A stretch of DNA of 64,000 nucleotides from Vampirovibrionales bacterium (GTDB lineage Bacteria; Cyanobacteriota; Vampirovibrionia; Vampirovibrionales; Vampirovibrionaceae), in NCBI GenBank assembly GCA_039794365.1, contig JBDIVN010000007.1, positions 44,389 to 108,388 on the forward strand, written 5' to 3'. The translations under genes were made by a program, and so were the position numbers. Below are positions 17,874 through 31,963 of this stretch, one piece after another (the stretch's first letter is position 1; every line of letters begins with the position of its first letter). Under the pieces are notes generated by a model. The model did not search any database. It saw only the letters and a list, made by a program, of their open reading frames with translations, and was not told the DNA's origin.

Positions 17874-18620
17874 ATGCGCACAGCAAACCCGGCCCTGAGT
17901 GAAAAGGCGTTCCGCTCCCCGGCCCGGACCGGCGAAGGGACCATGACCGTCCAGGGTGCCGTCAACAAAACCGCCATCCTCCTGGCCCTCGCCTTTGCCA
18001 CCGCCATGATCAGCTGGAACATGGTGCTGGCCAACCCGGCGATCTTTCCGTTGCTGATGTGGGGCGGACTCATCGGCGGGTTCATCCTCGCCATGATCAC
18101 CGCCTTCAAACGGGACTGGGCGCCGGCCACCGCCCCGGCCTACGCCCTGGTGGAGGGCGTTTTTCTCGGCAGCATTTCCGTCGCGTTCGAACATTACATG
18201 GGCGATGGCATGGCCGGGATCGTCTTTCAGGCCGTTATTCTCACCTTTGGAACACTGGCTGCCCTACTTCTGGCTTATAGTAGCGGGATGATTAAGGTCA
18301 CCGAGAAGTTTCGGATGGGGGTTTTCGCCGCCACCGGCGCCATCCTGCTCGTCTATATCGTCAATTTCGTGATGAGCTTCTTCGGCATGAACGTGCCCTT
18401 CCTTCATGACACCGGTCCCATCGGGATTGGCATCAGCGTGGTCATTGTCATCGTCGCCGCCCTGAACCTGGTGCTGGACTTCGACTTTTTCGAGCAGGGG
18501 GCACGCCAGGGGGCACCCAAACATATGGAGTGGTACGCCGCCTTCGGACTCATGGTCACCCTGGTCTGGCTCTACCTGGAAATGCTGCGCCTGCTGTACA
18601 AGATTCGCAGCAATCGCTAG
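17874..18620 (+). CDS. Bax inhibitor-1/YccA family membrane protein
   Basis: Seven predicted hydrophobic helices, about 220-aa core and the family's charged C-terminus. Start may be the internal MTVQGAVNKTAILLAL (17943). Confidence 0.55.
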   Translation: MRTANPALSEKAFRSPARTGEGTMTVQGAVNKTAILLALAFATAMISWNMVLANPAIFPLLMWGGLIGGFILAMITAFKRDWAPATAPAYALVEGVFLGSISVAFEHYMGDGMAGIVFQAVILTFGTLAALLLAYSSGMIKVTEKFRMGVFAATGAILLVYIVNFVMSFFGMNVPFLHDTGPIGIGISVVIVIVAALNLVLDFDFFEQGARQGAPKHMEWYAAFGLMVTLVWLYLEMLRLLYKIRSNR

Positions 18621-20221
18621 CGCCCGGAGGAAACGGCGAAGCGGTAGTCCACCGGACCCGGTGGGCGATCCGTTGACTGGGGGCGCGGATTCTGCGGAAC
18701 GGCGCTTTCGGGGGTCCGGGTTTCCAGCGCCTTGATTTTCGCCTTCGCCTTTCTGACCCGTTCGCGGCTGGCGGCATCCTTGTCGTCGCGGGCCAGTTCG
18801 ATGAACCGGTTGAGGGAAGCCACGGCCCGCCGGGGTTCATTGAGATCCGCGTAGATCATCCCCAGGTTGAACTGGATGTTGGCATCCCCGCCCGCCAGCA
18901 GCTCAGCCGCCCGGTAGAGGGTGAGGGCCTCCTGCTGCCGGTTGTCCTCACTCAGCAAACCGGCGTAGTTGATAAGCACATCCGGTTTCAAAGCCCGCAG
19001 ATACGCTTCCGCGGCCCTGATATCATCACCTTCGCGGTGATAGGCATAGCCGAGCGCCTTAAAGGCAGCCAGGTCGTCGGGGTTGGCCAGGATCAGCCGA
19101 CGCAGCTCCACGGCTGCCGAGGCGGGGCGGTTGCGTTTCAGCTCCACAATGGCAAGGCGGTAGTGGGCCAGCAGATGATCCGGGTTCCCGGAAAGCACCG
19201 AAATATAGGTTTTCAATGCCTCGTCCGCCTCCCCCCGCGCTTCCTGGAGCAGTCCGCGGGCGTAGAGGAGTTCGGGATTCTCCGGAAACTCCCGCATTGC
19301 CTGGCGCAACAACTCATCGGTTTCAGGAAAGTTCCCCTCTGACAGGTTCAGCCGGATCAACTCCAGCCACGCGGGCAGGAAGCGCAGGTGCTCCTCGGTG
19401 ACTTTCTGCAGGGCCAGGGTGGCCCGCTGTGTTTCTCCCGAAGCCAGATGCACCAGCCCCAACAGATAACGGCCCACCGGATCATGAGGCTGGCTCCCCA
19501 GCCAAGTTTCCAGGGTCATGCGGGCACTGTCCAAGCGTCCGCCCCGGTAAGCATCCCAAGCCTGGAGGATCTCCGCCGAGAAACCGCTCGATTGACCCGC
19601 CTCCAGGGCATAGATGGAGAAATCCGGTGCCGGTGTCCGCAGCGGGCTAGCCACTTTTGTCACGCCGGGGAAGCCCGCGTCCGATGCCAATGTTTTCGCC
19701 GGGTTTTTCGTCGGATCTTCCAGGGTCACCACGGACAGGGGTTCCGGCTTTTTCACGACCGCCGGCTGTCCCCGGCTAGCACCCACCAATGCAATGCTGA
19801 CCCGGCTTCCCGTGTTGGCACGCACCTGGGGGCGCAGCCGCTTGCTCACCTCCAGAACGATCCGGATGGCATTCTGACCGTCCTTGTGCTGCATCAGGTT
19901 CACCGAGCGCACCTCCCGAATGGTATCAGCCAGGGTCCGGCTGAGCGCGGGGATATTCTCCTGCAAGGCATCGTCAAACCGGACGCCTTCCCCTTCGATG
20001 ACAATACGGAACGTGCCTTTATCCCCTTCTTCCACCCACAAGACCGGATCAAAGACGCCCCCGGAAACTTCCAGCAGAATATCCGTCGTCCCCGGCTCCA
20101 CGGTGATGCCCACAATACGGGCAACGGCAGCGTCAACCTTCTCTCCGGCAAGCACCATCACCGCCAAAAGAACCAGCAGCCCGCCGGTCAGCCCGTTCCG
20201 AAAGCGCCGGAGACTCCCCAT
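18617..20221 (-). CDS. AMIN-domain plus TPR-repeat periplasmic protein
   Basis: Signal peptide (LLVLLAVMVLAG), N-terminal AMIN-like beta domain (IRIVLEV...VSIALVG), Pro/Lys linker, then multiple TPR-like repeats. It starts 4 nt after the stop of the upstream giant gene (operon). Confidence 0.7.
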   Translation of the reverse strand: MGSLRRFRNGLTGGLLVLLAVMVLAGEKVDAAVARIVGITVEPGTTDILLEVSGGVFDPVLWVEEGDKGTFRIVIEGEGVRFDDALQENIPALSRTLADTIREVRSVNLMQHKDGQNAIRIVLEVSKRLRPQVRANTGSRVSIALVGASRGQPAVVKKPEPLSVVTLEDPTKNPAKTLASDAGFPGVTKVASPLRTPAPDFSIYALEAGQSSGFSAEILQAWDAYRGGRLDSARMTLETWLGSQPHDPVGRYLLGLVHLASGETQRATLALQKVTEEHLRFLPAWLELIRLNLSEGNFPETDELLRQAMREFPENPELLYARGLLQEARGEADEALKTYISVLSGNPDHLLAHYRLAIVELKRNRPASAAVELRRLILANPDDLAAFKALGYAYHREGDDIRAAEAYLRALKPDVLINYAGLLSEDNRQQEALTLYRAAELLAGGDANIQFNLGMIYADLNEPRRAVASLNRFIELARDDKDAASRERVRKAKAKIKALETRTPESAVPQNPRPQSTDRPPGPVDYRFAVSSGR

Positions 20222-20225
20222 GACG

Positions 20226-23200
20226 CTATACCCCGCTCTTGAGCTTCTCGACATACTTTCGCACCACATCCGCATTGCTGGCGTTCGGCGAGAGGCTCAG
20301 AAACCGCTCCAGGTGGACGATGGCGTTGGACTTGTCTCCCATCTTGGAGTATATAAGACCCAGGTTGTAGTGGGCCGGACCGAAGTTGGGCCGGATGGAA
20401 AGGGCCTGCTGATAGGCATTCCTGGCTTTCTGCAAATCGTTGGTGGCGTTGTACAGGTTGCCCAGGTTGAAGAGCAGATCGCTGTCATTGGGGTTCAGGG
20501 AGAGGGCTGTCAGGAAGATGCGCTCCGACTCGTCCATACGCCCCAGCTTCTTCAGGGTGGTGGCGTAGTTGTTCAGCACGCTGACGGGAATAGCCATCGC
20601 AAAGGCTTGTTGGGCCTCTTCAAGACGTCCGCTGAGGAGATAGGCCTTCCCCAGAAGGTTATAGCCCTCCAACTCGTAGGGGTTGTTGGTGAGGAAGAGT
20701 TCGAGAATCCGGGTGGCTTCCGCCGGATTGCCGGTCTTGAGCAACCCGTCGGCATACGCCGTCACGTAGCGGGTCACGTCGGACTCCAGCTTGTAGGCGT
20801 CGCGGTACAGCACCGTGGCTTCCACGATCTTGCCGTTGTCCTCCAGCTCTTTTCCGCGGATATAGAACTCTTCGGCACGAGGGTTGGCGCTGGTGGTAGG
20901 CTGGCGCTGCTGCAACCGGCGAAGGGCCTCTTCCAGGGAGGCATTTTTCGCCGCCGCCTGCCGAAGCTCCTCGTTGAGCCGGGCAATCTGGGCATCATTG
21001 CCGCTGGAGCCGCCGGCCTGCGCACGGGCCTGGGAGAGTTGCTGCTGGAGGGTATCGATCTGGGAGCGTGAATCCTGGTAACGGCGGTTGGCTTCCGCCA
21101 GTTCGGACTGCAGACTGGCCAGGCGGCCCTGTTCACCGTCCAGTTGCTGCCGCAGGGCAATGTATTCCGGCGACTGCGTCACGGGCGTATCGTTTGCCGG
21201 ACGGGATTCCAGACTCGCAATCCGTTGCTTCAGGGTGTCATTCTCCCGCAGGGCGGCCTGGTAATTGCGGTTGGCCTCCTCAAGCTGCTGCTCCAGCCGG
21301 GCCAGTTGGGACTGGTAGCCGGTCAGGCGGCTTTCCTGACTGGCCAGTTGCTGCTGCAAAGCGATGTACTCCGGCGACTCCTCCACCGGCGTCTGTTGGG
21401 TCGAATCCGCCTGAAGACCCGCCACCTGCTGCTTCAATGCCTCGTTGCGGGCCACCGCCACTTTATAATTCTCGGCGGTCTCCCGCAATTCCTCGCGCAG
21501 GCGGGAAAGCTGACCCTGCTGATCCTCGAGCTGCCGTTGCAGGGCGATGTACTCCGGCGACTCCTCCACCGGTATCTGTTGGGTCGAATCCGCCTGAAGA
21601 CCCGCCACCTGCTGCTTCAATGCCTCGTTGCGGGCCACCGCCACTTTATAATTCTCGGCGGTCTCCCGCAATTCCTCGCGCAGGCGGGAAAGCTGACCCT
21701 GCTGATCCTCGAGCTGCCGTTGCAGGGCGACGTATTGGGGCGACCCCTCCACCGGCGCCTGTTGGGTCGAATCCGCCTGAAGACCCGCCACCTGCTGCTT
21801 CAATGCCTCATTTTGGGCTGTCGCCATCTTATAATTGCGGGTGGTCGTCTGCAACTCATCCCGCAGGCGGGAGATTTCCTCCTGCTGGCTTGAAAGCTGC
21901 GTTTGCAGGGCAACGTATTCAGGCATCTGCTCCACCGGTGGCCGGTAGGTGCTTTCCGCCTGCAGGGCGGCCACCTGGGACTTCAACACCTGGTTCTGGC
22001 GCTGCACGTCTTCCAGATTACGGATACGGCCCTGCAAATCACCCAGCTGCTTTTCGTATTCAACCAGTCGTGACTTCTGGGCCTGGGTTTGTTCCTGTAA
22101 AGCAAGATACCGGGGAGACTGCTCCACCGGCGTTGGCTTGACCGAAGCCTGGGACTGCATGGCCTTGAGTTCCGCCTGCAAGGCCTCCTTTTCCCGGATC
22201 GCATTCTCATAGTCCCGGCTCAGGGCCAGATACTTGGGATTCTGCTCCAGCGGCGGCGGCGGGATAATCCCATGGGTTCGCGCCGCGCTGAGATCCGCCT
22301 TCAGCTGATCCGCCTCGTTGACCTTGGCGAGATACTTGCGGCTCAGTTCGCCCATCTGCTCCTGAATCTTCTGAGCTTCGGAGATCGCGCCCTGCCGGTC
22401 GGCACGGGCCTGTTGAAGATCACTTCGGACCGAGTCGAGCTGGTCCTGAAGCGCTTTCCTGTCCGTCTCCACGGCATTCAGGGCCGCCTGAACCTCATTC
22501 ACCTTTGCCTGCAGGGTCCGGACCTGATCGCTCTGGGTGGCGCGGGCCTGCTGAAGCTCCTGGCTGGCCTGTTGAAGTGCTTCGCGGGTCTGCCCGAGTT
22601 TTACCTCCATATCGGATTTCTCGGCGCTCAGAGTGTTTTTCTCTTTCTCCGCGGCATTCAGGGTCGACTGAAGCTCCTCCACTTTTGCCTGCAGGGTCCG
22701 AACCTGATCGCTCTGGGTGGCGCGGGCCTGCTGAAGTTCCTGGCTCGCCTGCTGCAACTTCGCCTGCAAATCGGATTTTTCAGTACTCAGGGCCGTCAGG
22801 GAATCCCGCAGGCTTTTGACCTTTTCCTCGGTCGGCCGCTCCGCCAGGGCCTCTTTTAACTGGCTGTTCTCGGAGCGGGCGGTCAGCAGGGCCTCCTCCA
22901 TAGCGTTTTTCGCCTTATGGAGAGCCTCCAGTTGCTCATTCATCGCCGCCAGCGCCCGTTTCAGCCGGGTCAGCTGCTCCTCTCCCTCCTGGCCGTCAGC
23001 CAGCTGCTTGCGCAGGGTATCCACAGACATCCGAAGGCCGGAGTTCTCGGCAGACAGGTTCTTGAGCGCATCCTCCCGCTGGGCCAGACGGGCTTCCGTC
23101 TCCTCCAGCTTCTGGCTTAGCGCCGCCACCTGTTGCCTGGCCGCTGCATCCATCCCCTGACGCACCTCGTTGAGCTGCTCGGTCAACGCGGCGATTTCCT

Positions 23201-25085
23201 TGTTCTGACGGTTGATGGTCTCTACAGACTGGGCCAGGGATTGACGGGCCTTTTCCACCTCGGCCTTCAGGGCATTCAGCCGATCCGGCGGTACGTGGGC
23301 CGACCGGAGCTGGCGATTTTCCGACTCCAGTTCGCCGTACTTGCGGTTAAGCACCGCCAGCGCCTTTTTCATATCCTCGAAGGAGAAGGGGGGCTTCTCG
23401 GCCAGCGCCCGTTCCAGCTGGCTGCGCAAATCCGCATTGGTCCGTTCCAGCAATTGGACCCGCTCCCGGTAGGATGCACTGTCCTGTTGCAGAGCCTGGT
23501 ACTGGGCATTGAGTTCATTATAGCGGCCGGCCAGCGCAGAAGACTGGTCTTGCTGACTGCGCAGGGACTGGACAGCCCGTTCTCCCTCAGCCGCCTGGCT
23601 GCGGGCCTGGGCAAGCTCCCGCTGGAGATCCTGGTTCCGACGCGTCAGGGCGGTCACTTCCTGTTTCAGTCCGTCCAGTTCGGACGGACTCGACGCCTGG
23701 GCACGAAGCTGGGCGAGCTGCTGCTCCAGCTGCTTGTAACGATGGCTCACCTCGGCCAGTTGCTCCTGCAGGGTCCTGACCTGCTGCTGACTGGCGCTGT
23801 AATTCGCGTGAAGGCGACTCAGGCGCTCCTGAAGTCCGGGGTCCTGCTGTTGCTGAGCCTGACGCTGGGCGCTGGCCAGTTCCGCCATCCGGGCCTGAAG
23901 ATCCTGGACCAGCTGCTGGCTGGAACTGTAGCGGTCGGCCAGTTCCTGGTAGCGGCGCTGCAATTCCTCGTACCGGCGCTTCAACTCATCGGACTGCCCA
24001 TCGGGCCGCCCGGAGGCATCCTGGCGAATCTGGCCGAGTTCCCGCTGGCTACTCTGGTAACGCGTCTCAACATCCGCCAGCTGGGATTTCAGGTCCCGGA
24101 TAACGGTTTCCTGCCGGGCGAGACGACTCGCCAGATCTCCGGACTGGCCTTGCTGTTCCATAAGCTGGCGGTAACGGGCCTTGAGTCGCTCATAATCATC
24201 CTTGAGGCCGGACACATCGCCCTGCTGGCTCATCAGGATCTGGTTTCGCTCGGCCAGCTGGGACACCTGAGCCTGAAGCTCCTGCACCCGGCGCTGGCTC
24301 TGCTGGTATTCGCTGCTCAAGGCCGAATAACGCGACTCCGCATCGGAGAGACGGGATCGAGCCTGGGTGGCCTGCTCGTAGCGGCTGTTGACGTCCTGCA
24401 ACTGAAGCTGCAGGCTGCGGACCTGCTCCCGCAAGCTCTCCACCTGAAGCAGCTTGTCCCCCACCTGCCCCAACCGGACACGCAGATCGTCAAGCTCGCG
24501 CTTCTGCTGTTCAATGGTATTAAGGGCACGCTGGTACTCCAGCGGACTCACGTTGCCAGGCTCCCGATGCGGCTCAGGCGTCAGGGGGCGCAGCTCGTTC
24601 CGGAGAACCGGCGGATCGGCAGCAACGGGACGGGCCGCACTGACCGGCTCCACCCGCAACTCAAGGGAACCCCCCGCCCCCTCCACCAGACGGGCATTAT
24701 AGCTGTCTCCGACCAGGTCGATGAGTATCCGGACAACAGGGCGTGCCCCGCCAAACTGGTTGATGGAGACGTTCTGGACGGCAGACCACTGGGACTGGAG
24801 CCTGGAGAGCAACTCCCCCTCGCGTGGCAGGGCCAGCCCCACACCGGCATTTTCGATATCAAGGATCAGGCGTTTGTTTCCGTTGACCGTCGTGGCGTTG
24901 AACGACGACCTCACTGGACCGGAACTGGACACGGTAAAGCTTTGACGCAGCGGATTGTACTGGATGCCCTCAACCACGCCCTCGGCGGACCAGGCCAGGG
25001 TGGGGGCAAACATGGTCTCAAACAGGAATATGGAACCCCCAACCAAAGTCAGGGCAACAGTATGGAACTGCTTCTTAACTCTCAT
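20226..25085 (-). CDS. giant (1619 aa) secreted AMIN-domain / repetitive coiled-coil / C-terminal TPR protein
   Basis: Signal peptide MRVKKQFHTVALTLVGGSIFLFETMFAPTLAWSA. AMIN-like domain (RLILDIEN...VVRILIDLVGDSY). About 1,200 aa of heptad-rich Gln/Leu/Glu/Arg/Ala sequence, including roughly 8 copies of a 60-aa repeat (PVE.SPEY[IV]ALQ.QL...LKQQVAGLQADSTQQ). C-terminal TPR repeats. No TM segment after the signal peptide. Confidence 0.8.
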   Translation of the reverse strand: MRVKKQFHTVALTLVGGSIFLFETMFAPTLAWSAEGVVEGIQYNPLRQSFTVSSSGPVRSSFNATTVNGNKRLILDIENAGVGLALPREGELLSRLQSQWSAVQNVSINQFGGARPVVRILIDLVGDSYNARLVEGAGGSLELRVEPVSAARPVAADPPVLRNELRPLTPEPHREPGNVSPLEYQRALNTIEQQKRELDDLRVRLGQVGDKLLQVESLREQVRSLQLQLQDVNSRYEQATQARSRLSDAESRYSALSSEYQQSQRRVQELQAQVSQLAERNQILMSQQGDVSGLKDDYERLKARYRQLMEQQGQSGDLASRLARQETVIRDLKSQLADVETRYQSSQRELGQIRQDASGRPDGQSDELKRRYEELQRRYQELADRYSSSQQLVQDLQARMAELASAQRQAQQQQDPGLQERLSRLHANYSASQQQVRTLQEQLAEVSHRYKQLEQQLAQLRAQASSPSELDGLKQEVTALTRRNQDLQRELAQARSQAAEGERAVQSLRSQQDQSSALAGRYNELNAQYQALQQDSASYRERVQLLERTNADLRSQLERALAEKPPFSFEDMKKALAVLNRKYGELESENRQLRSAHVPPDRLNALKAEVEKARQSLAQSVETINRQNKEIAALTEQLNEVRQGMDAAARQQVAALSQKLEETEARLAQREDALKNLSAENSGLRMSVDTLRKQLADGQEGEEQLTRLKRALAAMNEQLEALHKAKNAMEEALLTARSENSQLKEALAERPTEEKVKSLRDSLTALSTEKSDLQAKLQQASQELQQARATQSDQVRTLQAKVEELQSTLNAAEKEKNTLSAEKSDMEVKLGQTREALQQASQELQQARATQSDQVRTLQAKVNEVQAALNAVETDRKALQDQLDSVRSDLQQARADRQGAISEAQKIQEQMGELSRKYLAKVNEADQLKADLSAARTHGIIPPPPLEQNPKYLALSRDYENAIREKEALQAELKAMQSQASVKPTPVEQSPRYLALQEQTQAQKSRLVEYEKQLGDLQGRIRNLEDVQRQNQVLKSQVAALQAESTYRPPVEQMPEYVALQTQLSSQQEEISRLRDELQTTTRNYKMATAQNEALKQQVAGLQADSTQQAPVEGSPQYVALQRQLEDQQGQLSRLREELRETAENYKVAVARNEALKQQVAGLQADSTQQIPVEESPEYIALQRQLEDQQGQLSRLREELRETAENYKVAVARNEALKQQVAGLQADSTQQTPVEESPEYIALQQQLASQESRLTGYQSQLARLEQQLEEANRNYQAALRENDTLKQRIASLESRPANDTPVTQSPEYIALRQQLDGEQGRLASLQSELAEANRRYQDSRSQIDTLQQQLSQARAQAGGSSGNDAQIARLNEELRQAAAKNASLEEALRRLQQRQPTTSANPRAEEFYIRGKELEDNGKIVEATVLYRDAYKLESDVTRYVTAYADGLLKTGNPAEATRILELFLTNNPYELEGYNLLGKAYLLSGRLEEAQQAFAMAIPVSVLNNYATTLKKLGRMDESERIFLTALSLNPNDSDLLFNLGNLYNATNDLQKARNAYQQALSIRPNFGPAHYNLGLIYSKMGDKSNAIVHLERFLSLSPNASNADVVRKYVEKLKSGV
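21190..22270 (-). repeat. intragenic tandem repeat array, period ~180 nt (about 6 copies; two near-identical at ~21361-21720)
   Basis: Segments starting at about 21361 and 21541 are almost identical over 180 nt (ctccaccgg[c/t][g/a]tctgttgggtcgaatccgcctgaagacccgccacctgctgcttcaatgcctcgttgcgggccaccgccactttataattctcggcggtctcccgcaattcctcgcgcaggcgggaaagctgaccctgctgatcctcgagctgccgttgcagggc). Flanking copies are progressively diverged. They encode the 60-aa coiled-coil repeat. Confidence 0.7.
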
Positions 25086-25329: not shown

Positions 25330-26448
25330 CTAGGCCAGTTTCAGGGCTGGCCCTGACGGCAGCGGGATCGTTTTCCCGGACAGGGCCTCTTCGGCCAGTC
25401 GCTTGAGATCCGGGTTGGGCTTGTTGAAGAAGTTGAACCAGCCTTTGCCCGCCGCATTTTTCAGAACCTTTTTCATTTCCTTGTCGTCCTGGCGGTTGAT
25501 CACCTGCCACGCCTGGATGGCGGCAGCACGGACGTCCGGGTTCTCGTTCTTGTCCTGGACCACCTGCTTGATCACATCCAGGCCGGGAAGATTCTTGGTG
25601 GGCACACTGGCATTCTGGGAGGCATTCAGCATACCCAGGGTCCAGAGGGCCGCCTGGCGGACGTAATTGGCATCATCCTTGGCCTGTCCCTGCAAATGGC
25701 TGGTGTCGGCCAGGGCCTCACGCTTCAGAAGATCGTAGGTTTGGGCGGTTCCATAACCCCGAACACCGATCTCCTCCATCGCATCCACCCGCTCCTGCAG
25801 GGTGGAGGGTTGGTCAATCAGAGCGTTGAGCTGCTCTACATCCGCCGTCTTCAGGCCGGGCTGCTGGGGTTGCTGCGGCGGCTGAGGCTGCTGCGGATAC
25901 TGATCCACGGGCGGCTGGGGCTGCTGTGGGTATTGATCCTGCGGGTACTGGGGATACTGGGCATACGGGTCAGGGTACTGTCCCGGATACTGCGGATATT
26001 GCCCAGGATACGGGTAGGCCCACGGATTGGGCTGAGCCTGGAACGGACTCGGATAAGGCTGTTGCTGTTGATAGAAGGGAATCTGCTGCTGGAAAGCGGT
26101 CGCGTTCATCTGGTTCGCCAGGTTCAAATAGGAATTTCTCGCCTGTTCAGCCAGATTCTTGGCATTCAGCGCCTCGGCATACGCATTCTGAAGCGCCTGC
26201 TGCGGGTTCATCGACGGGAACATGTTGTTGTAGTTCGCCGGATAGGCCGCAGGGGCGGAACTGGCCGGGGCGCCATAAACGGAAGCCGGCGGCGCGGCAG
26301 CGGGGCCGTAAGGCGATGCATAGGGCGACGGAGCCGCAGCAGGACCAATCTGGCCAGGGACGGCGCCGCCCGGAAAGTTCTTCGGCTCGATGATCTGGAT
26401 ATTCACCGCCGACGAAGTTTGAGGTAATTGAGGATAAGCTGTGACCAT
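25330..26448 (-). CDS. Pro/Gln/Tyr-rich low-complexity protein with C-terminal HEAT-like repeats
   Basis: N-terminal ~200 aa dominated by QYPQYPGQYP / QPQPPQQPQQ repeats and AAPxxYG motifs. C-terminal ~150 aa has HEAT/PBS-lyase-like helical repeats (YVRQAALWTLG, DVRAAAIQAW). First gene of the AMIN/TPR cluster. Confidence 0.55.
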   Translation of the reverse strand: MVTAYPQLPQTSSAVNIQIIEPKNFPGGAVPGQIGPAAAPSPYASPYGPAAAPPASVYGAPASSAPAAYPANYNNMFPSMNPQQALQNAYAEALNAKNLAEQARNSYLNLANQMNATAFQQQIPFYQQQQPYPSPFQAQPNPWAYPYPGQYPQYPGQYPDPYAQYPQYPQDQYPQQPQPPVDQYPQQPQPPQQPQQPGLKTADVEQLNALIDQPSTLQERVDAMEEIGVRGYGTAQTYDLLKREALADTSHLQGQAKDDANYVRQAALWTLGMLNASQNASVPTKNLPGLDVIKQVVQDKNENPDVRAAAIQAWQVINRQDDKEMKKVLKNAAGKGWFNFFNKPNPDLKRLAEEALSGKTIPLPSGPALKLA

Positions 26449-26767
26449 TTGCTGCCTTGACCCCTTCTGTTATAGAAAGCTGGATTGAAATATTTGCTCT
26501 GGAATTGAATCTACACGTTAAAGACCGATGAACCTGCCATGTTGCTATCCGCCCCTATGAATATTAATTTTTTGTTACACGCCGAAAGTGTTCCTTGTTT
26601 CGGGACGATGACGGGAAAGCCATGCCGACGGCTGGAGAGCACCACCTGAGACGTACCGAACATGCCTCATCCCTGGCAATACAGAATCACAAAGTCGAAT
26701 TTCAATCAATCCATGAACCTTCCCCGCCCTCTGACGCAGTAGCTCTTAAAAAAACCTTAAGGAACCT

Positions 26768-26794
26768 GTGACGCCTGAAAATGGCTGCTATAAT
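26768..26794 (+). promoter_or_regulatory. candidate sigma70-type promoter upstream of grpE
   Basis: Perfect TATAAT at 26789-26794 with an imperfect -35 (GTGACG/TGTGAC) 15-16 nt upstream, about 80 nt before the grpE ATG. No CIRCE inverted repeat is visible. Confidence 0.3.
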
Positions 26795-26871
26795 GAGGTT
26801 GCCCAAAGCTGCACCTGAACAGTGGCAAAGGCTCCCCCGCATGTCACGTCCGGGCCTTGAAAAGGATTTGA

Positions 26872-27498
26872 TTGCCGATGGCACAGGAACAACAACAGGA
26901 GACGGTACCGCAACCTTCAGAAACGAAGGGGCCGCACGAAACGCAAGAAGCGGAAACAGACGTCCATGAGGAGCTGCCGCCTTCGGGCAACAGCCTGCAG
27001 GAGCGGTTCGACGTGCTGCAGGATCAGCACATGCGCCTGGCGGCGGATTTCGAGAATTTCCGCAAGCGGGTCCTCCAGGAGCGGGAAGCCCTGCTGAAAT
27101 ACGGAGCCGAAAATACCATCCAGTCGCTTCTGCCCATCCTTGACAACCTGGAGCGGGCCTCATCCAGCCTGTCCGAAGGATCGGACCCGGCCATGCTCTA
27201 CAAGAGCTTCGAACTGCTGAGCAAACAGCTGATGGACACTCTGGCCTCCCAGGGGCTGAAGAAGATTGAAACCGTGGGCCAGCCTTTTGATCCTAATTTC
27301 CATGAGGCCACCGGCCAGATGGAAACCGATGAATATCCGGAGAACACGGTTGCCCTTGAGGTCCAGCCCGGCTTCCAGCTCCATGACCGGGTGCTTCGCC
27401 CGGCGCTCGTGATGGTGGCCTCCAGCGGCAGCGGCGAGGAAAACCCAGCCCCCTCCGAAGCCGACAGCCGGGAGAACCCGTTCGCCCAGTCCGAATAG
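26872..27498 (+). CDS. grpE: nucleotide exchange factor GrpE
   Basis: GrpE signature region LQERFDVLQDQHMRLAADFENFRKRVLQEREALLKYGAENTIQSLLPILDNLERA. Typical length with an acidic C-terminal tail. Confidence 0.9.
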   Translation: MPMAQEQQQETVPQPSETKGPHETQEAETDVHEELPPSGNSLQERFDVLQDQHMRLAADFENFRKRVLQEREALLKYGAENTIQSLLPILDNLERASSSLSEGSDPAMLYKSFELLSKQLMDTLASQGLKKIETVGQPFDPNFHEATGQMETDEYPENTVALEVQPGFQLHDRVLRPALVMVASSGSGEENPAPSEADSRENPFAQSE

Positions 27499-27543: not shown

Positions 27544-28701
27544 TTGATGAGCACCGCCAAACGCGACTATTACGAAATCCTCGGCGTACAGCGCAACGCC
27601 ACCGCGGAGGAAATCAAGAAGGCTTTCCGCCGCAAGGCGAAGGAATATCACCCGGACGTGAACAAGAGTCCGGACGCCGAAGGACTGTTCAAGGAACTCG
27701 GCGAAGCCTTCGACGTGCTCAGCGACGACCAGAAACGACAGGTCTACGACACCTACGGCCATGATGGCCTGCGTTCCGGCGGCTACCAGACCAACTGGGA
27801 CTTCATGCAGGGCTTTCCGGATCTCAACGATCTGTTCGCCTCCTTCTTTGGCGGCGATTTCGGCTTTGCCGCCAGCCGGCGCCAAGGCCCCCACCAGGGG
27901 GACGACCTGCGTTTCGATATCGAACTCGACTTCATGGAAGCGGTTTTTGGCGCGAAGAAAGAGGTGGAAATCCAACGCCTGAACCGGTGTGCTCCTTGCA
28001 GCGGCACCGGCTCAACGCCGGGGTCAGGTGCCAGCATCTGCCAGACCTGTGGCGGCGGCGGCCAGATCCGTCAGACCACCCAGACCATCATCGGCCACTT
28101 CACCCAGATCACGGTCTGCCCGCGCTGCCAGGGGCAAGGACAGGTGATTACGGACCCTTGCAAGGACTGTCACGGCCAAGGCCGGCTCCAGGGCGCCAAA
28201 AAGCTCACCATCAACATTCCTGCCGGTGTGGACCGGGGCACCCGGCTCCGGGTGGCCGGCGAGGGCAACGCCGGGTATCTGGGAGGCCCCAACGGGGACC
28301 TCTACGTGGTGGTCAACGTCAAGCCCCATCCGGTATTTAACCGGGAAGCGTACAACCTGATGTCCGTCCAGAACGTCCCCTACTCCATGATGGTTCTGGG
28401 CGGCGAGGTGGAGGTGCCGGTTCTGGAAGGTACGTCCCGGATCAAAATCCCGGCAGGCACCCAGAACGGCCACGTTTTTACCCTGAAACAGCAGGGGGTT
28501 CCCCACCTGAACAATCCCAGCCGACGCGGCGATCATTTCATCCAGGTGCAGGTCAACATTCCCACCCGCCTCAGCGGCGAGGAAAAAAAGCTGCTGGAGC
28601 GTCTCAACGAGATCGATCGGGAAAAACAGCGCCAGGAAGACCGCCATGCGGCCTCGACGCTGTTCGACCGGTTCAAGGACGCCCTCTCCGGGAGTGCCTA
28701 A
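27544..28701 (+). CDS. dnaJ: molecular chaperone DnaJ
   Basis: J domain (DYYEILGV...HPD), G/F region and four CxxCxGxG zinc-finger repeats, with C-terminal domains. Confidence 0.95.
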
Positions 28702-28709
28702 GTTAGCTG

Positions 28710-29402
28710 ATGGGTAGGTTCAAATGCCGTTTTGCTGTAGGAAGCCCAACAGGCTTACGGTCAGGGGCGTTCACAGTTTGGACAAGCAGGAATGATATTT
28801 ATATTGCGGGCCGTAATATCGGCGGCTCTATGAAAACTAGTCTGCACGAGTCAGGCAAACGCCACAGTGGTTTAACTAGCACATTTTTTCAAGAGCCTGG
28901 AACTTTGGAAATGTGGGGCCTTGCCAATAGACATGCTGATGAATGGATAGGGGGTTATCAAATTAGCGAAACTACAACTTTGGAATTTGCCATAGCATTT
29001 CCAAAGTCTGATCTTCGGCTTTTCAGCGACCCAAAACTCAATCCAAACAAAATCAAATGGCTACCTGAACCTCCCCAAGGCTGTCATCTTGAAGTAGCTT
29101 TGTTGATAGAAACTGAGCCTTCAGATACAGAAGAGTGGCCTGGAAAAACTATAATGGGGACTCAATTCTTAGACAGCTATGTTTTGCCCGATGGGAGGAT
29201 CCTATGGCTCGTGTATCATTCGATCCCAGAATCGCCCACTCCCAAATCTATACACGAGGAACTTAAACTCGTCATTAAAAAATCTATGCAAGCAAACCCC
29301 AACATGCAATTTACGGGCGGACACAGACTAATTGTGGGCCAAATAAGCGATGACGGAGTCAGGTGCTACGTTGACCTTGCAGCGGATAGATATAATAACT
29401 AA
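28710..29402 (+). CDS. orphan hypothetical protein encoded in a low-GC insertion
   Basis: 230-aa ORF (possible start at MKTSLHESG, ~28830) in a ~0.7 kb segment markedly AT-richer than its flanks. No recognisable motif. Confidence 0.4.
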   Translation: MGRFKCRFAVGSPTGLRSGAFTVWTSRNDIYIAGRNIGGSMKTSLHESGKRHSGLTSTFFQEPGTLEMWGLANRHADEWIGGYQISETTTLEFAIAFPKSDLRLFSDPKLNPNKIKWLPEPPQGCHLEVALLIETEPSDTEEWPGKTIMGTQFLDSYVLPDGRILWLVYHSIPESPTPKSIHEELKLVIKKSMQANPNMQFTGGHRLIVGQISDDGVRCYVDLAADRYNN

Positions 29403-29419: not shown

Positions 29420-30190
29420 CTACTCGGCGGGCAGGTTGAAAGCGCCGCCGAAGTCGATGTTCACCGTATCGCCCGGCTCAATGGTGGCAGACTCACCCTT
29501 GCCCACGAGGGCCATCACGCTTTTCCCCGCCGTCACCGCGGTTCCCGCAAAAACTCCGCCCACCACGGCAGCCGGCACCGTGACGATCTTGCCCGCCCCC
29601 CCGGCAAGGTCCTCGCCCGCCTGGGAACCGGCATCCTTGAAACGGCCCAGGGTATTCACGCCACTCTCAAAACTCTTGTGGATCTTGTACCCGACACCGG
29701 GATCGTCGTAAAGGGCAAACTCCGCCTCGCGGGTTCCCGGCCTTCTCACCCGCCTGACGGCATCGTTTTTGGCGGAGAGGTCCAGATCCAGCGGCATGAG
29801 ATCGCCGGTGGGCAGCACCACGTGGTCAAAGGTCAGCAGGATGGTTCCGCCCCGGCTGAAGAGGCCGGGCTTTTTCACGGCATCCACCCGTCCCCGGACC
29901 AGGGTGCCCCGCGGCAGGATCACCCGCGAATCCCCGTCCAGGCCGGGGGCCTTGAAGTCCTGCTGGATAAATGCGGTAAAAGGCTCCCCTTCCGTGGAAA
30001 TACGCGAATCCAGCTCCGAGTTGAACCGGACCGTCAGCATGGTCCCCGCCGGCACCTTCTGGGACCGGGTGTCCAGTTTCAACGACGTGGTCGGCAGGGC
30101 ATCCTGGCCCCAACCCGGTGTAATCCCCGCCAGGAGACACACTGCCACCGATGCAATCATCAAACGCCGTCCAGGGTTCCACATGCGCAT
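29420..30190 (-). CDS. secreted hypothetical protein (signal peptide)
   Basis: N-terminus MRMWNPGRRLMIASVAVCLLAGITPGWG is signal-peptide-like. Mature protein is beta-rich and Gly/Val-rich with no known motif. Confidence 0.5.
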   Translation of the reverse strand: MRMWNPGRRLMIASVAVCLLAGITPGWGQDALPTTSLKLDTRSQKVPAGTMLTVRFNSELDSRISTEGEPFTAFIQQDFKAPGLDGDSRVILPRGTLVRGRVDAVKKPGLFSRGGTILLTFDHVVLPTGDLMPLDLDLSAKNDAVRRVRRPGTREAEFALYDDPGVGYKIHKSFESGVNTLGRFKDAGSQAGEDLAGGAGKIVTVPAAVVGGVFAGTAVTAGKSVMALVGKGESATIEPGDTVNIDFGGAFNLPAE

Positions 30191-30235
30191 TATCCTCTCA
30201 ACTCGTATCTCTCTTATTGTACAGGACAATTCCGC

Positions 30236-31963
30236 TCAGGTAATCTTGGACTCGTTGATGTCGCTGGACATGGCCGCTTCACGGTAGAACTCGCACATTT
30301 CGAGATACCGGCGGCGCATGATTTCAAGCACCTGGTCAAAACGCGGACGCTCCTGGGGGCTGGCAGCCAGCTTGGTGTACTCCCGCCATGTTTCAATTTC
30401 AAGCACCCGGCGGCGCAGTTCGTCCACGTCGGTCTGGGTGGGCGTATAGCGGTGGCTCTGATGAAATTCGGTAAGCCGGTCGACGCCGGTCAAATCCTGG
30501 GCAGCCTTGAGGATGCAGATAAAAATGGAACGCTGCCATGACAAGGCGCTTTCCCGCGAGGCCTTGGGAAGATCGTTGATATTGCTGTCGAGGGAGCCGA
30601 TATAGGACTTGAGCCGGTCCAGCAGGGTCTCCTTTTCGGGACGGACCTCCAACACCTTGTGAGGACTGAGCAGCAGGGGGTCCGAATTGACCAGGGAAAG
30701 GGCCGCCACCTGGGCATAGCGAGCCACTTCATCATGATGGCTGAAGAGGTGCAAACCGTTGACCCCCCATTCCACAGCCACTTCCTTGGTGAGGGCCTGC
30801 TTTTCCAGCAGGTAGTCGCTGACCTTGTCCACCGCGGCACGATCCGGATATTCACCCTCCACCATCCGGTGATAAAGCGCTTCCGGCGGTTCCTGAAGCC
30901 CCGTCTCCCGGCAGGCTTCCTCCCAGGCTGCCTTGCGGATGCCGAACATGCCGCTGTCCAGATGGGTTTTTGAAATGGCCTCAACCAGGCTGGGAGGGAA
31001 GGGCAGAGGAGCCACACCCTTGGACGGAGCAGCCAGGCGCTGCTGATGCCGGTCCCAAAGTTTTTCCCTGAGCTGCGTGCCGAGATCCTCGCCATACTGC
31101 TGGACGATCTGCAGGGCCACCTGGTCATAAATAAAGCGTTCCGAGACAAAACGCGAATCGTTATTGACCGAGAGGGCCTCCACAATCCCTGAAGCGAAGG
31201 TTCGCGGACCGAACCCGCTGCCCTGGACGTAGTTGGCTATGCGGGTGCGAAACTCCGGCTCGTTAAGAATATGCCACGCAATGGCGCTGCCCATGATGGG
31301 ATGGGTGGACAGGTTATCGATGGACAGGGTGGTCTCGAACTTGGGATCGTGCAGCCAGCCGACAAGAGCCGACTGCAGCACCTCAGGCCGGCAGGCGTTC
31401 TCATCCATGGCCTTGACCACGCACAGACGGCTGACCTGCGAGGAGTGGTGGACCACGTCCGGGTAGCCCATAGAATAGAGGGCCTTGACGGTGCGGGCGA
31501 CGAACTGCTCGTAGATACCCGCCTCATCTTCGGAAAAACCGAAGAATTTCCGGAAAAAGTTGACCGTGACCGTATGCTGGCCCTGCAGTTCCATGAGAAA
31601 CAACTTGGCCTCGTCCATGTAGGCGTCCGCCGGTCGGTTCTCGATGATGACCCGTGGCAGCTTCTTGGCCAGGGCAAAGTGGTTCATCACCCGCGCCTTG
31701 GCCAGGGCCAGGCTGCGGATGAGCTTTTGCACGTCACGATCACCTAATACCTTGTCTTCCAACTCTTCCGGCGTAAATCCGATCTCTGCCATCCGTCGGC
31801 AGAGTGCAAACAGCGCAATAAACTGCCGGACCATCTCGCGGTCCGCAAAAAAGCCGGGGGCATAGTAGTCGGTTAGCTGACTACCGCCTGCCAAGCCTCT
31901 TCGCAGATGCTCCAACGTCCTAAGCTTTGGCGTGTATAAACCATGGAATCTCGGATGAGCCAT
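30236..31963 (-). CDS. hypothetical protein (575 aa; possible degenerate HD-type fold)
   Basis: Long ORF with clean coding appearance. The HH....(30 aa)...WLHD spacing resembles HD-domain metal ligands, but the match is weak. Confidence 0.45.
   Translation of the reverse strand: MAHPRFHGLYTPKLRTLEHLRRGLAGGSQLTDYYAPGFFADREMVRQFIALFALCRRMAEIGFTPEELEDKVLGDRDVQKLIRSLALAKARVMNHFALAKKLPRVIIENRPADAYMDEAKLFLMELQGQHTVTVNFFRKFFGFSEDEAGIYEQFVARTVKALYSMGYPDVVHHSSQVSRLCVVKAMDENACRPEVLQSALVGWLHDPKFETTLSIDNLSTHPIMGSAIAWHILNEPEFRTRIANYVQGSGFGPRTFASGIVEALSVNNDSRFVSERFIYDQVALQIVQQYGEDLGTQLREKLWDRHQQRLAAPSKGVAPLPFPPSLVEAISKTHLDSGMFGIRKAAWEEACRETGLQEPPEALYHRMVEGEYPDRAAVDKVSDYLLEKQALTKEVAVEWGVNGLHLFSHHDEVARYAQVAALSLVNSDPLLLSPHKVLEVRPEKETLLDRLKSYIGSLDSNINDLPKASRESALSWQRSIFICILKAAQDLTGVDRLTEFHQSHRYTPTQTDVDELRRRVLEIETWREYTKLAASPQERPRFDQVLEIMRRRYLEMCEFYREAAMSSDINESKIT

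Follow-up and report, generated by a model that had tools for sequence, protein, structure and literature searches.

A Pro/Gln-rich HEAT-domain protein of Vampirovibrionales: conserved layout, variable linkers and a candidate adaptor role

What could a bacterium do with a protein in which a long, almost uncharged stretch of proline, glutamine and tyrosine precedes a compact helical domain? The question is raised by a gene on the minus strand of a 64-kb stretch of a Vampirovibrionales genome (contig JBDIVN010000007.1, positions 44,389 to 108,388 of the forward strand), hereafter the window, from whose first letter all coordinates are counted. Vampirovibrionales are predatory, non-photosynthetic sisters of cyanobacteria. 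An earlier reading of the window, made from the sequence alone, had described the product as prion-like and FG-like, very unusual in bacteria, and possibly a condensate or flexible tether partnered with the giant coiled-coil protein encoded downstream. We find a family with a constant layout, here called P/Q-HEAT, and hold with moderate confidence that the protein is a lineage-specific cytoplasmic modular adaptor or tether.

The P/Q-HEAT open reading frame (ORF) is real and under purifying selection. It starts with ATG, preceded by a Shine–Dalgarno-like GAAGGGG about 14 nt upstream, and an independent Logan assembly contig yields a call of the identical protein with the same neighbours. Two plus-strand ORFs, 25696-26427 and 25926-26393, are shadows rather than genes: the homologues, the selection signal and the Pfam match are all in the minus-strand frame. 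In one pair of close orthologues (loci L007 and L008), the ratio of non-synonymous to synonymous substitution rates (dN/dS) is 0.008 for the helix, 0.028 for the HEAT domain, 0.07 for the P/Q linker and 0.15 for the N-terminal low-complexity segment, while indels are confined to the low-complexity parts and are all in frame. The gene and its parts are as follows.

25330..26448, minus strand: whole P/Q-rich HEAT gene, 372 aa plus stop codon (ORF list)
26368..26448, minus strand: N-terminal motif, aa 1-27, MVTAYPQLPQTSSAVNIQIIEPKNFPG (conserved in orthologues)
26215..26367, minus strand: first low-complexity segment, aa 28-78, rich in Ala, Pro, Ser, Tyr and Gly (composition)
26086..26214, minus strand: single long helix, aa 79-121, PQQALQNAYAEALNAKNLAEQARNSYLNLANQMNATAFQQ, rich in Asn, Ala and Gln (conservation, structure prediction)
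25858..26085, minus strand: Pro/Gln/Tyr-rich, almost uncharged disordered linker, aa 122-197 (composition, model confidence)
25877..25939, minus strand: 33-bp tandem duplication within the linker (Tandem Repeats Finder)
25378..25857, minus strand: folded HEAT/ARM-type domain, aa 198-357, eight helices, about four repeats
25333..25377, minus strand: C-terminal tail, aa 358-372, GKTIPLPSGPALKLA (motif kept across the family)

Word-indexed protein searches with the C-terminal domain and with a 38-sequence profile gave one to two matches, and hence an exhaustive HMMER search over 1.84 billion representatives was performed; it retrieved 76 cluster representatives at E <=1e-3, of which 25 at E <=1e-30. 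For the genome scan a 7-sequence alignment was used, the 38-sequence alignment being too diverse; a scan of metagenome contigs yielded one short locus only. Canonical members share one order, namely, N-terminal motif, helix, P/Q linker, HEAT domain and the ending G-[KE]-x-I-P-[LI]-P, often followed by a further P/Q/M/G tail. According to the genome scan, the canonical gene occurs in eight metagenome-assembled genomes (MAGs), six carrying a Vampirovibrionales or Melainabacteria label, one a ‘Cyanobacteriota’ and one a ‘Coleofasciculaceae’ label. The last of these (L006, DATNPJ010000033.1, ‘Coleofasciculaceae cyanobacterium’) holds a full Vampirovibrionales-type locus (orf269, dnaJ-grpE, P/Q-HEAT, NAGPA, AMIN / coiled coil, TPR), which suggests a binning or classification error in this record. 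Judging from these records, the full architecture appears to be specific to Vampirovibrionales/Melainabacteria genomes. Family members are annotated merely as ‘hypothetical’ or ‘HEAT repeat protein’, and no function has been described for any of the 76 representatives. NCBIfam and PADLOC hold no model matching the P/Q-HEAT protein, PADLOC defence models included, and literature searches on the family found nothing.

The full-length AlphaFold2 model has a disordered-helix-disordered-domain layout. Predicted local distance difference test (pLDDT) values are 41-55 across most of aa 1-80 and aa 122-198, rising to about 65 for the last few linker residues, and therefore both regions are predicted to be disordered; they are 72-77 for a helix at aa 82-121 and about 96 for the HEAT domain. 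The claim of disordered low-complexity sequence followed by a folded HEAT-like C-terminus thus stands, both by these values and by the Pfam match and domain model described below. The claimed extent of about 200 aa of low complexity holds in part: the Pro/Gln/Tyr tract is real and covers only about 76 aa, the rest including two conserved, non-repetitive elements.

The first of these elements, the N-terminal motif, is beta-strand-like, with pLDDT below 50, and is not a Sec or Tat signal, its highest 15-aa Kyte–Doolittle hydropathy being 0.59. The low-complexity segment between the two elements (pLDDT 41-47 across most of aa 28-78) is predicted to be disordered and varies among orthologues in length and sequence. 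The second element, the helix, is found in about 37 of the 76 representatives and is the best-conserved block outside the HEAT domain, with the consensus QQxLQxAYxxAxxARxxAExARNxYLNLANQLNxQAYQ. Read from the alignment, it carries an Ala/Leu/Tyr stripe with i, i+3/4 spacing, and likely serves self-association or partner docking.

At the other end of the protein, the tail motif G-[KE]-x-I-P-[LI]-P is conserved in canonical members and in those fused to enzymes. In about half of the canonical members the sequence terminates in hydrophobic-x-Ala (KLA, MLA, ALA, LLA, VFA, QLA, VMA and others; in the window protein, the last three codons, 25333-25341). These ends resemble ssrA-type C-terminal degrons, so that regulated proteolysis is possible by sequence resemblance; enzyme-fused members end otherwise.

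Linkers keep composition, not sequence

The tract quoted in the sequence-only reading, QYPQYPGQYPDPYAQYPQYPQDQYPQQPQPP, is present in the protein. Residues 121-195 consist of 33% Gln, 30% Pro and 16% Tyr, with 4% charged residues, and the tract contains only one Asn. In aa 126-200, Pro, Gln or Tyr account for 59 out of 75 residues, compared with 14% in neighbouring window genes (binomial P ~2e-35). The linker carries traces of its origin: the 33-bp duplication (period 33, 1.9 copies, 86% matches) encodes [Q/V]DQYPQQPQPP twice, and Tandem Repeats Finder reports period-9 arrays of the QYP unit nearby, at 25935-25966 and 25984-26002. Therefore, the linker grows by replication slippage.

All helix-bearing members have linkers with 23-64% Pro plus Gln and at most 10% charged residues. 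Their length ranges from 29 aa, in P0004, to 482 aa, and their Tyr content from 0 to 16%; in many of them aromatics are swapped for Met or Leu, e.g., 18 Met and four aromatics in P0002. The linker dN/dS of 0.07 in the orthologue pair means that it is translated and constrained. Thus, the linkers keep composition, not sequence, length or Tyr content, and of the conservation proposed as a test in the sequence-only reading, Pro/Gln richness and charge depletion are seen in orthologues and the spacing of Tyr is not.

A lineage-wide compositional quirk was considered as the source of the tract and rejected: no second P/Q/Y tract occurs among the other ORFs of the 64-kb window, and the P/Q bias is kept in eight Vampirovibrionales genomes with locus GC content of 0.45-0.61.

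The HEAT module and its other fusions

The C-terminal domain is a member of HEAT_2 by both sequence and fold. Pfam HEAT_2 (PF13646) matches aa 256-332 with 32.1 bits, above the gathering cut-off of 27.7, and the related members P0006 and P0025 score above this cut-off as well. AlphaFold2 modelling of aa 196-372 (177 aa, 38-sequence alignment) gave a mean pLDDT of 93.6 and a predicted template modelling score (pTM) of 0.89, with eight helices in stacked helix-turn-helix repeats, i.e., an alpha-solenoid. Foldseek against PDB gave generic HEAT/ARM matches only, none at E <1e-3, and the family profile recovers consensus-designed armadillo repeats with E 7e-10. Modelling shows the four-repeat domain as a short prokaryotic HEAT/ARM-type module of the PBS-lyase / alphaRep type, with a putative binding role.

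This module is not restricted to P/Q proteins. About 18 of the 76 representatives are devoid of the N-terminal parts and have other N-terminal domains instead, some of them with two copies of the HEAT module. The fusions are as follows.

Lipase_3 fusions (seven): P0021, P0022, P0044, P0058, P0061, P0065, P0068
LRAT fusions (six): P0020, P0048, P0049, P0066, P0074, P0076
TIR_2 fusions: P0024, P0025, P0030
Other alpha/beta hydrolase fusion: P0006, from a Longimicrobiaceae MAG (locus L011, GC 0.76)

One more member counted with the TIR group, P0027, is a short fragment whose N-terminus is TIR-like by eye and has no Pfam TIR match. The module is autonomous and portable, since it is fused elsewhere to other N-terminal domains, and behaves as an independent binding, sensing or regulatory unit with a putative ligand. 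PADLOC recognised the TIR parts of the fusions alone (ThsB / SAVED-TIR / Aga models). The contexts of the fusion genes are mixed, with partition, transposase, toxin–antitoxin or unrelated genes. No paralogue of the module is present in the window, nor is any NAGPA or HSP70-like gene.

One fusion context stands apart. The gene of P0021, a Lipase_3 protein with two HEAT modules, lies 284 bp downstream of a gene for an atypical HSP70-like protein of 818-910 aa with a long C-terminal region of W..A..WK.L..D repeats (L013:156-4776 and L016:4985-9881; also L014 and L015). The pair adjoins F-type type IV secretion genes (TraN/TraU/TrbC/TraC) and a SMODS/ThiF (CBASS-like) island, and has no PADLOC match; the arrangement hints at a two-gene cassette for conflict or defence that would be undescribed so far.

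Locus and possible role

The surroundings of the P/Q-HEAT gene comprise the following features.

26449..26871: 423-bp intergenic stretch between P/Q-HEAT and the divergent grpE (sequence)
26872-27498, plus strand: grpE (Pfam GrpE, E 6e-47)
27544-28701, plus strand: dnaJ (DnaJ domains on the identical Logan contig; synteny)
20226..25085, minus strand: AMIN / coiled-coil / TPR gene, 1619 aa, downstream and co-directional (Pfam TPR families)
18617..20275, minus strand: TPR gene, 552 aa, with N-terminal signal or anchor, co-directional (Pfam TPR_19, TPR_16 and others; synteny)

That the gene lies upstream of the AMIN / coiled-coil / TPR genes, as noted from the sequence alone, is confirmed in the window, and the gene order is conserved in relatives: orf269; dnaJ-grpE divergent from P/Q-HEAT; a gap of 0-3.7 kb; AMIN / coiled-coil / TPR; TPR; and a Bax-inhibitor-like gene. 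The divergent grpE arrangement is kept in eight Vampirovibrionales loci and the AMIN / coiled-coil / TPR gene is syntenic in six out of eight; the distant P0036, with 38% identity in the search and 35% over the full-length alignment, is likewise flanked by grpE and NAGPA. In the window, 244 bp of non-coding sequence separate the P/Q-HEAT gene from the AMIN / coiled-coil / TPR gene. The 423-bp region presumably holds the promoters of both P/Q-HEAT and grpE; no sigma-70 consensus and no terminator-like site were found around the P/Q-HEAT gene, no CIRCE element in the 423-bp region, and no Rfam RNA family in the window.

That the protein pairs directly with the giant coiled coil, as the sequence-only reading had proposed, is topologically doubtful. 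The 1619-aa protein begins with a signal peptide (an N-terminal hydrophobic segment ending AWS/AEG, hydropathy 1.7), matches AMIN weakly and runs through about 1300 aa of coiled coil to TPRs at its C-terminus; the hydropathy of the 552-aa TPR protein reaches 2.6 at aa 29-43. In the P/Q-HEAT protein and its family, in contrast, there is no signal peptide or hydrophobic segment, 0.59 being the maximum for the window protein. A direct complex would need an unknown export route or a membrane-spanning intermediary, and the proposed partnership is not supported, suggestive as the neighbourhood is.

These features underlie the reading as a cytoplasmic adaptor or tether. The partner bound by the HEAT domain would be a protein or an extended peptide, the helix would provide self-association or a second contact, and the P/Q segments would act as long, flexible spacers rich in polyproline II structure, letting the binding ends span distance or hold several partners, as in ZipA (see below). 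The linker length of 29-482 aa, P+Q content of 23-64%, charge of at most 10% and slippage repeats fit a spacer. Weak multivalent self-association could in addition come from the scattered aromatic or Met residues and would turn the protein into a scaffold or condensate former, a feature that the data do not require. The position between grpE-dnaJ and the genes of secreted AMIN/TPR envelope proteins suggests a role in envelope or cell-pole organization or in proteostasis.

Several observations weigh against this assignment. The protein has neither a membrane anchor nor a second globular domain, and its co-directional neighbours are predicted to be exported, unlike the protein itself. A shared gene order may simply reflect common descent within an order or class, with no functional meaning, and the most distant member checked, P0057, is in a different neighbourhood. 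Intergenic gaps of 244-330 bp suggest separate transcription, though no terminator-like site was found. Finally, every linker contains 12-30% aromatic, Met or Leu residues and is constantly depleted in charge, which could mean more than a passive spacer.

The foremost alternative is a condensate-forming scaffold, in which an uncharged P/Q spacer, Tyr/Phe/Trp or Met stickers, the helix and the HEAT domain would together drive phase separation and create a membraneless hub, functionally similar to PopZ. Condensate formation is possible in view of the linker composition: all canonical linkers are very low in charge with scattered aromatic, Met or Leu residues, the 75 residues of the window linker include 15 aromatics and neither Met nor Leu, and Tyr–Pro is over-represented across linkers, with 64 observed against 38 expected, although this excess is inflated by within-protein repeats. 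Contacts between the HEAT domain of one molecule and the linker of another are conceivable, because the domain resembles armadillo repeats that bind extended peptides. However, 30% Pro disfavours amyloid-type prion behaviour. The three-part layout of N-terminal helix, disordered region and helical C-terminal domain also recalls PopZ (PMC9512792), but neither Tyr content (0-16%) nor length (29-482 aa, with 29 residues in P0004) is conserved, unlike the PopZ linker. On balance, we regard such a scaffold as a tentative and rather unlikely explanation.

Conversely, the linker could be neutral filler, a tolerated slippage product, with only the helix and the HEAT domain being of importance. The tandem 33-bp and 9-bp repeats, the large length variation, the drift from Tyr-rich to Met-rich to Gln/Ala-rich composition and the 29-residue linker of one member agree with this, but all helix-bearing members retain a P/Q-rich, charge-poor linker despite deep divergence and GC content of 0.45-0.61, and the dN/dS of 0.07 indicates constraint on the encoded residues, which makes filler hardly probable.

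The neighbourhood invites a third explanation, a partner of the Hsp70 system, in which the HEAT/ARM domain would bind DnaK or co-chaperones as an HspBP1/Fes1-like exchange factor or client adaptor. The divergent grpE-dnaJ arrangement in eight loci and near the distant P0036, together with the otherwise unrelated Lipase_3 protein encoded 284 bp downstream of an HSP70-like gene and the marginal similarity of the HEAT domain to HspBP1, would agree with it. Yet divergent adjacency does not imply co-regulation, CIRCE was not found, dnaK itself is outside the locus, and L013-L016 are possibly pieces of one mobile element, in which case they constitute a single observation. No HSP70 gene neighbours the fusion gene at five other enzyme-fusion loci, and a general Hsp70 link of the HEAT domain is rejected as not borne out there. 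HspBP1 itself is not a preferred structural match of the domain. We consider an Hsp70-partner role improbable.

We likewise give little credence to export or injection of the protein. Toxin-like effectors of a predatory lineage (TIR, lipase, LRAT phospholipase) would then share the HEAT module for delivery or docking, and the P/Q protein would be a further substrate or an extracellular or periplasmic partner of the AMIN proteins, exported non-classically via its N-terminal motif. A constant C-terminal domain is fused to varied toxic-type enzymes, a layout seen in many secreted effector families; one fusion gene adjoins F-type type IV secretion genes, the co-directional neighbours encode envelope proteins, and the extreme N-terminus is conserved and has no assigned role. 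However, there is no signal peptide and no match to a secretion-targeting domain in Pfam, NCBIfam or PADLOC, at least one fusion comes from Longimicrobiaceae, not a known predator, and the plasmid partition, transposase and toxin–antitoxin genes near the fusions fit defence or addiction islands equally well.

Still less probable is a wider generalization, the HEAT module as a shared docking or sensor domain linking a Vampirovibrionia-specific scaffold, which could condense through its sticker-and-spacer linker, with toxin-like enzymes (TIR NADase-type, class-3 lipase, LRAT phospholipase-type). If true, such effectors or Hsp70-system components would be recruited, stored or restrained by the P/Q protein, acting as a hub at a defined site in the predatory cell, and the result would be a bacterial membraneless organizer whose domain serves conflict systems as well.

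If the adaptor reading is right, the P/Q-HEAT protein is a clean natural bacterial case of a folded binding module combined with an interaction helix and composition-conserved disordered spacers, and it comes from a barely studied predatory lineage. Among family members, linkers differ naturally in length (29-482 aa) and in sticker chemistry (Tyr, Met or Leu), a series usable for asking how the composition of a disordered linker tunes bacterial function. The HEAT module on TIR, lipase and LRAT enzymes represents a previously unnamed portable domain, with the fusions as a handle on its ligand. Undescribed in the databases and literature searched are the P/Q-HEAT architecture and the HEAT-module sub-family, while the HEAT_2 fold, P/Q tethers and bacterial prion-like domains are already known; the finding alone opens no long-standing question.

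Some further features of the locus were recorded. The gene grpE is directly followed by dnaJ, with no dnaK between them or nearby in the locus, the common order being grpE-dnaK-dnaJ. The three ORFs by dnaJ, at 28710-29402 (plus strand), 29420-30229 (minus strand) and 30236-31963 (minus strand), have no Pfam or NCBIfam match; those of 269 aa and 575 aa are found at the corresponding place in related Vampirovibrionales loci. The gap downstream of P/Q-HEAT contains, in five loci, a gene for a secreted AMIN-like phosphodiester-glycosidase (NAGPA, PF09992). The protein is about 500 aa long with an AMIN-like N-terminus, and in most related genomes its gene stands between P/Q-HEAT and the AMIN / coiled-coil gene (L005:10779-12242, L006:10888-12471, L009:10666-12273, L010:2798-4318, L004:4917-6527, L024:3943-5430); it is missing from the window, L003 and L008.

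The coiled coil of the 1619-aa protein contains several near-identical units of about 60 aa, …QQVAGLQADSTQQxPVEESPEY[IV]ALQRQLEDQQGQLSRLREEL…, and has a sub-threshold intermediate-filament match (E 1.5e-7). Given its great length, this periplasmic coiled coil could help to determine cell shape in a vibrioid lineage, as a ‘periskeletal’ element. In the 552-aa TPR protein, the anchor is followed at aa 50-80 by a strand-rich segment, ARIVGITVEPGTTDILLEVSGG, which resembles the first AMIN strands and, loosely, the P/Q-HEAT N-terminal motif AVNIQIIEPKNF, in each case over a short stretch.

Comparison with known systems

The HEAT domain has 14-23% identity to the CpcE/CpcF bilin lyases, E. coli YibA and alphaRep. 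Among HEAT_2 / PBS-lyase proteins the window family forms its own tight group with the GKxIPLP end, and neither CpcE/F nor YibA has the N-terminal motif, the helix or the P/Q linker. The similarity to E/F-type bilin lyases is that of fold only, and none of the genes noted around it in the window encodes a phycobiliprotein. To our knowledge, the best-known Vampirovibrionia genomes have no phycobilisomes, and hence would offer no bilin-lyase substrate.

The P/Q-HEAT protein is outside the families of yeast-type prion domains, FG-nucleoporins, PopZ and ZipA, as it is devoid of at least one defining feature of each. Proline is unfavourable for amyloid prion formation. The tract resembles yeast-type prion domains and bacterial prion-like domains (e.g., that of Rho from Clostridium botulinum) in being Gln-rich, charge-poor, Tyr-containing and predicted to be disordered, but 30% Pro and a single Asn set it apart from the low-proline yeast type, and argue against the label ‘prion-like’ in the sense of yeast amyloids. 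FG-nucleoporins are defined by Phe–Gly motifs, whereas the P/Q-HEAT protein contains no FG or GF dipeptide, its aromatic residue being Tyr, mostly as Tyr–Pro; the comparison with FG-like domains is not supported. A possible parallel is offered by the acidic proline-rich (APR) domains of the cytoskeleton-associated Mycoplasma terminal-organelle proteins P65, HMW1 and HMW3, which have Pro/Gln/Tyr/Asp-rich repeats. Their unit DPNQAY resembles QYPDPYAQYP of the P/Q-HEAT protein; the APR domains are acidic and have no HEAT domain.

To call such a tract very unusual in bacteria was too strong, because both P/Q tethers (PMC6904479) and bacterial prion-like domains, with more than 60 multi-phylum families catalogued (PMC6400439), have been described.

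PopZ from Caulobacter has a three-part design like that of the P/Q-HEAT protein: its disordered linker, Pro-rich and about 78 aa long, runs from an N-terminal helix to a helical C-terminal domain (PMC9512792). Its linker is strongly acidic, with net charge of -0.28 per residue, and tightly conserved in length and composition (PMC9512792), whereas the P/Q-HEAT linkers are almost uncharged and vary from 29 to 482 aa; there is no homology.

In ZipA from E. coli, an unstructured Pro/Gln-rich segment of about 100 aa joins an N-terminal anchor to a C-terminal globular partner-binding domain (PMC6904479). The P/Q-HEAT protein has no sequence homology to ZipA and no match to the ZipA family. It differs from ZipA in having no transmembrane anchor, in its HEAT rather than FtsZ-binding fold at the C-terminus, and in a Tyr-rich linker without a charged domain beside it. 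The likeness lies in layout and spacer composition, the P/Q-HEAT linker (aa 122-197) being placed between the helix and the HEAT domain.

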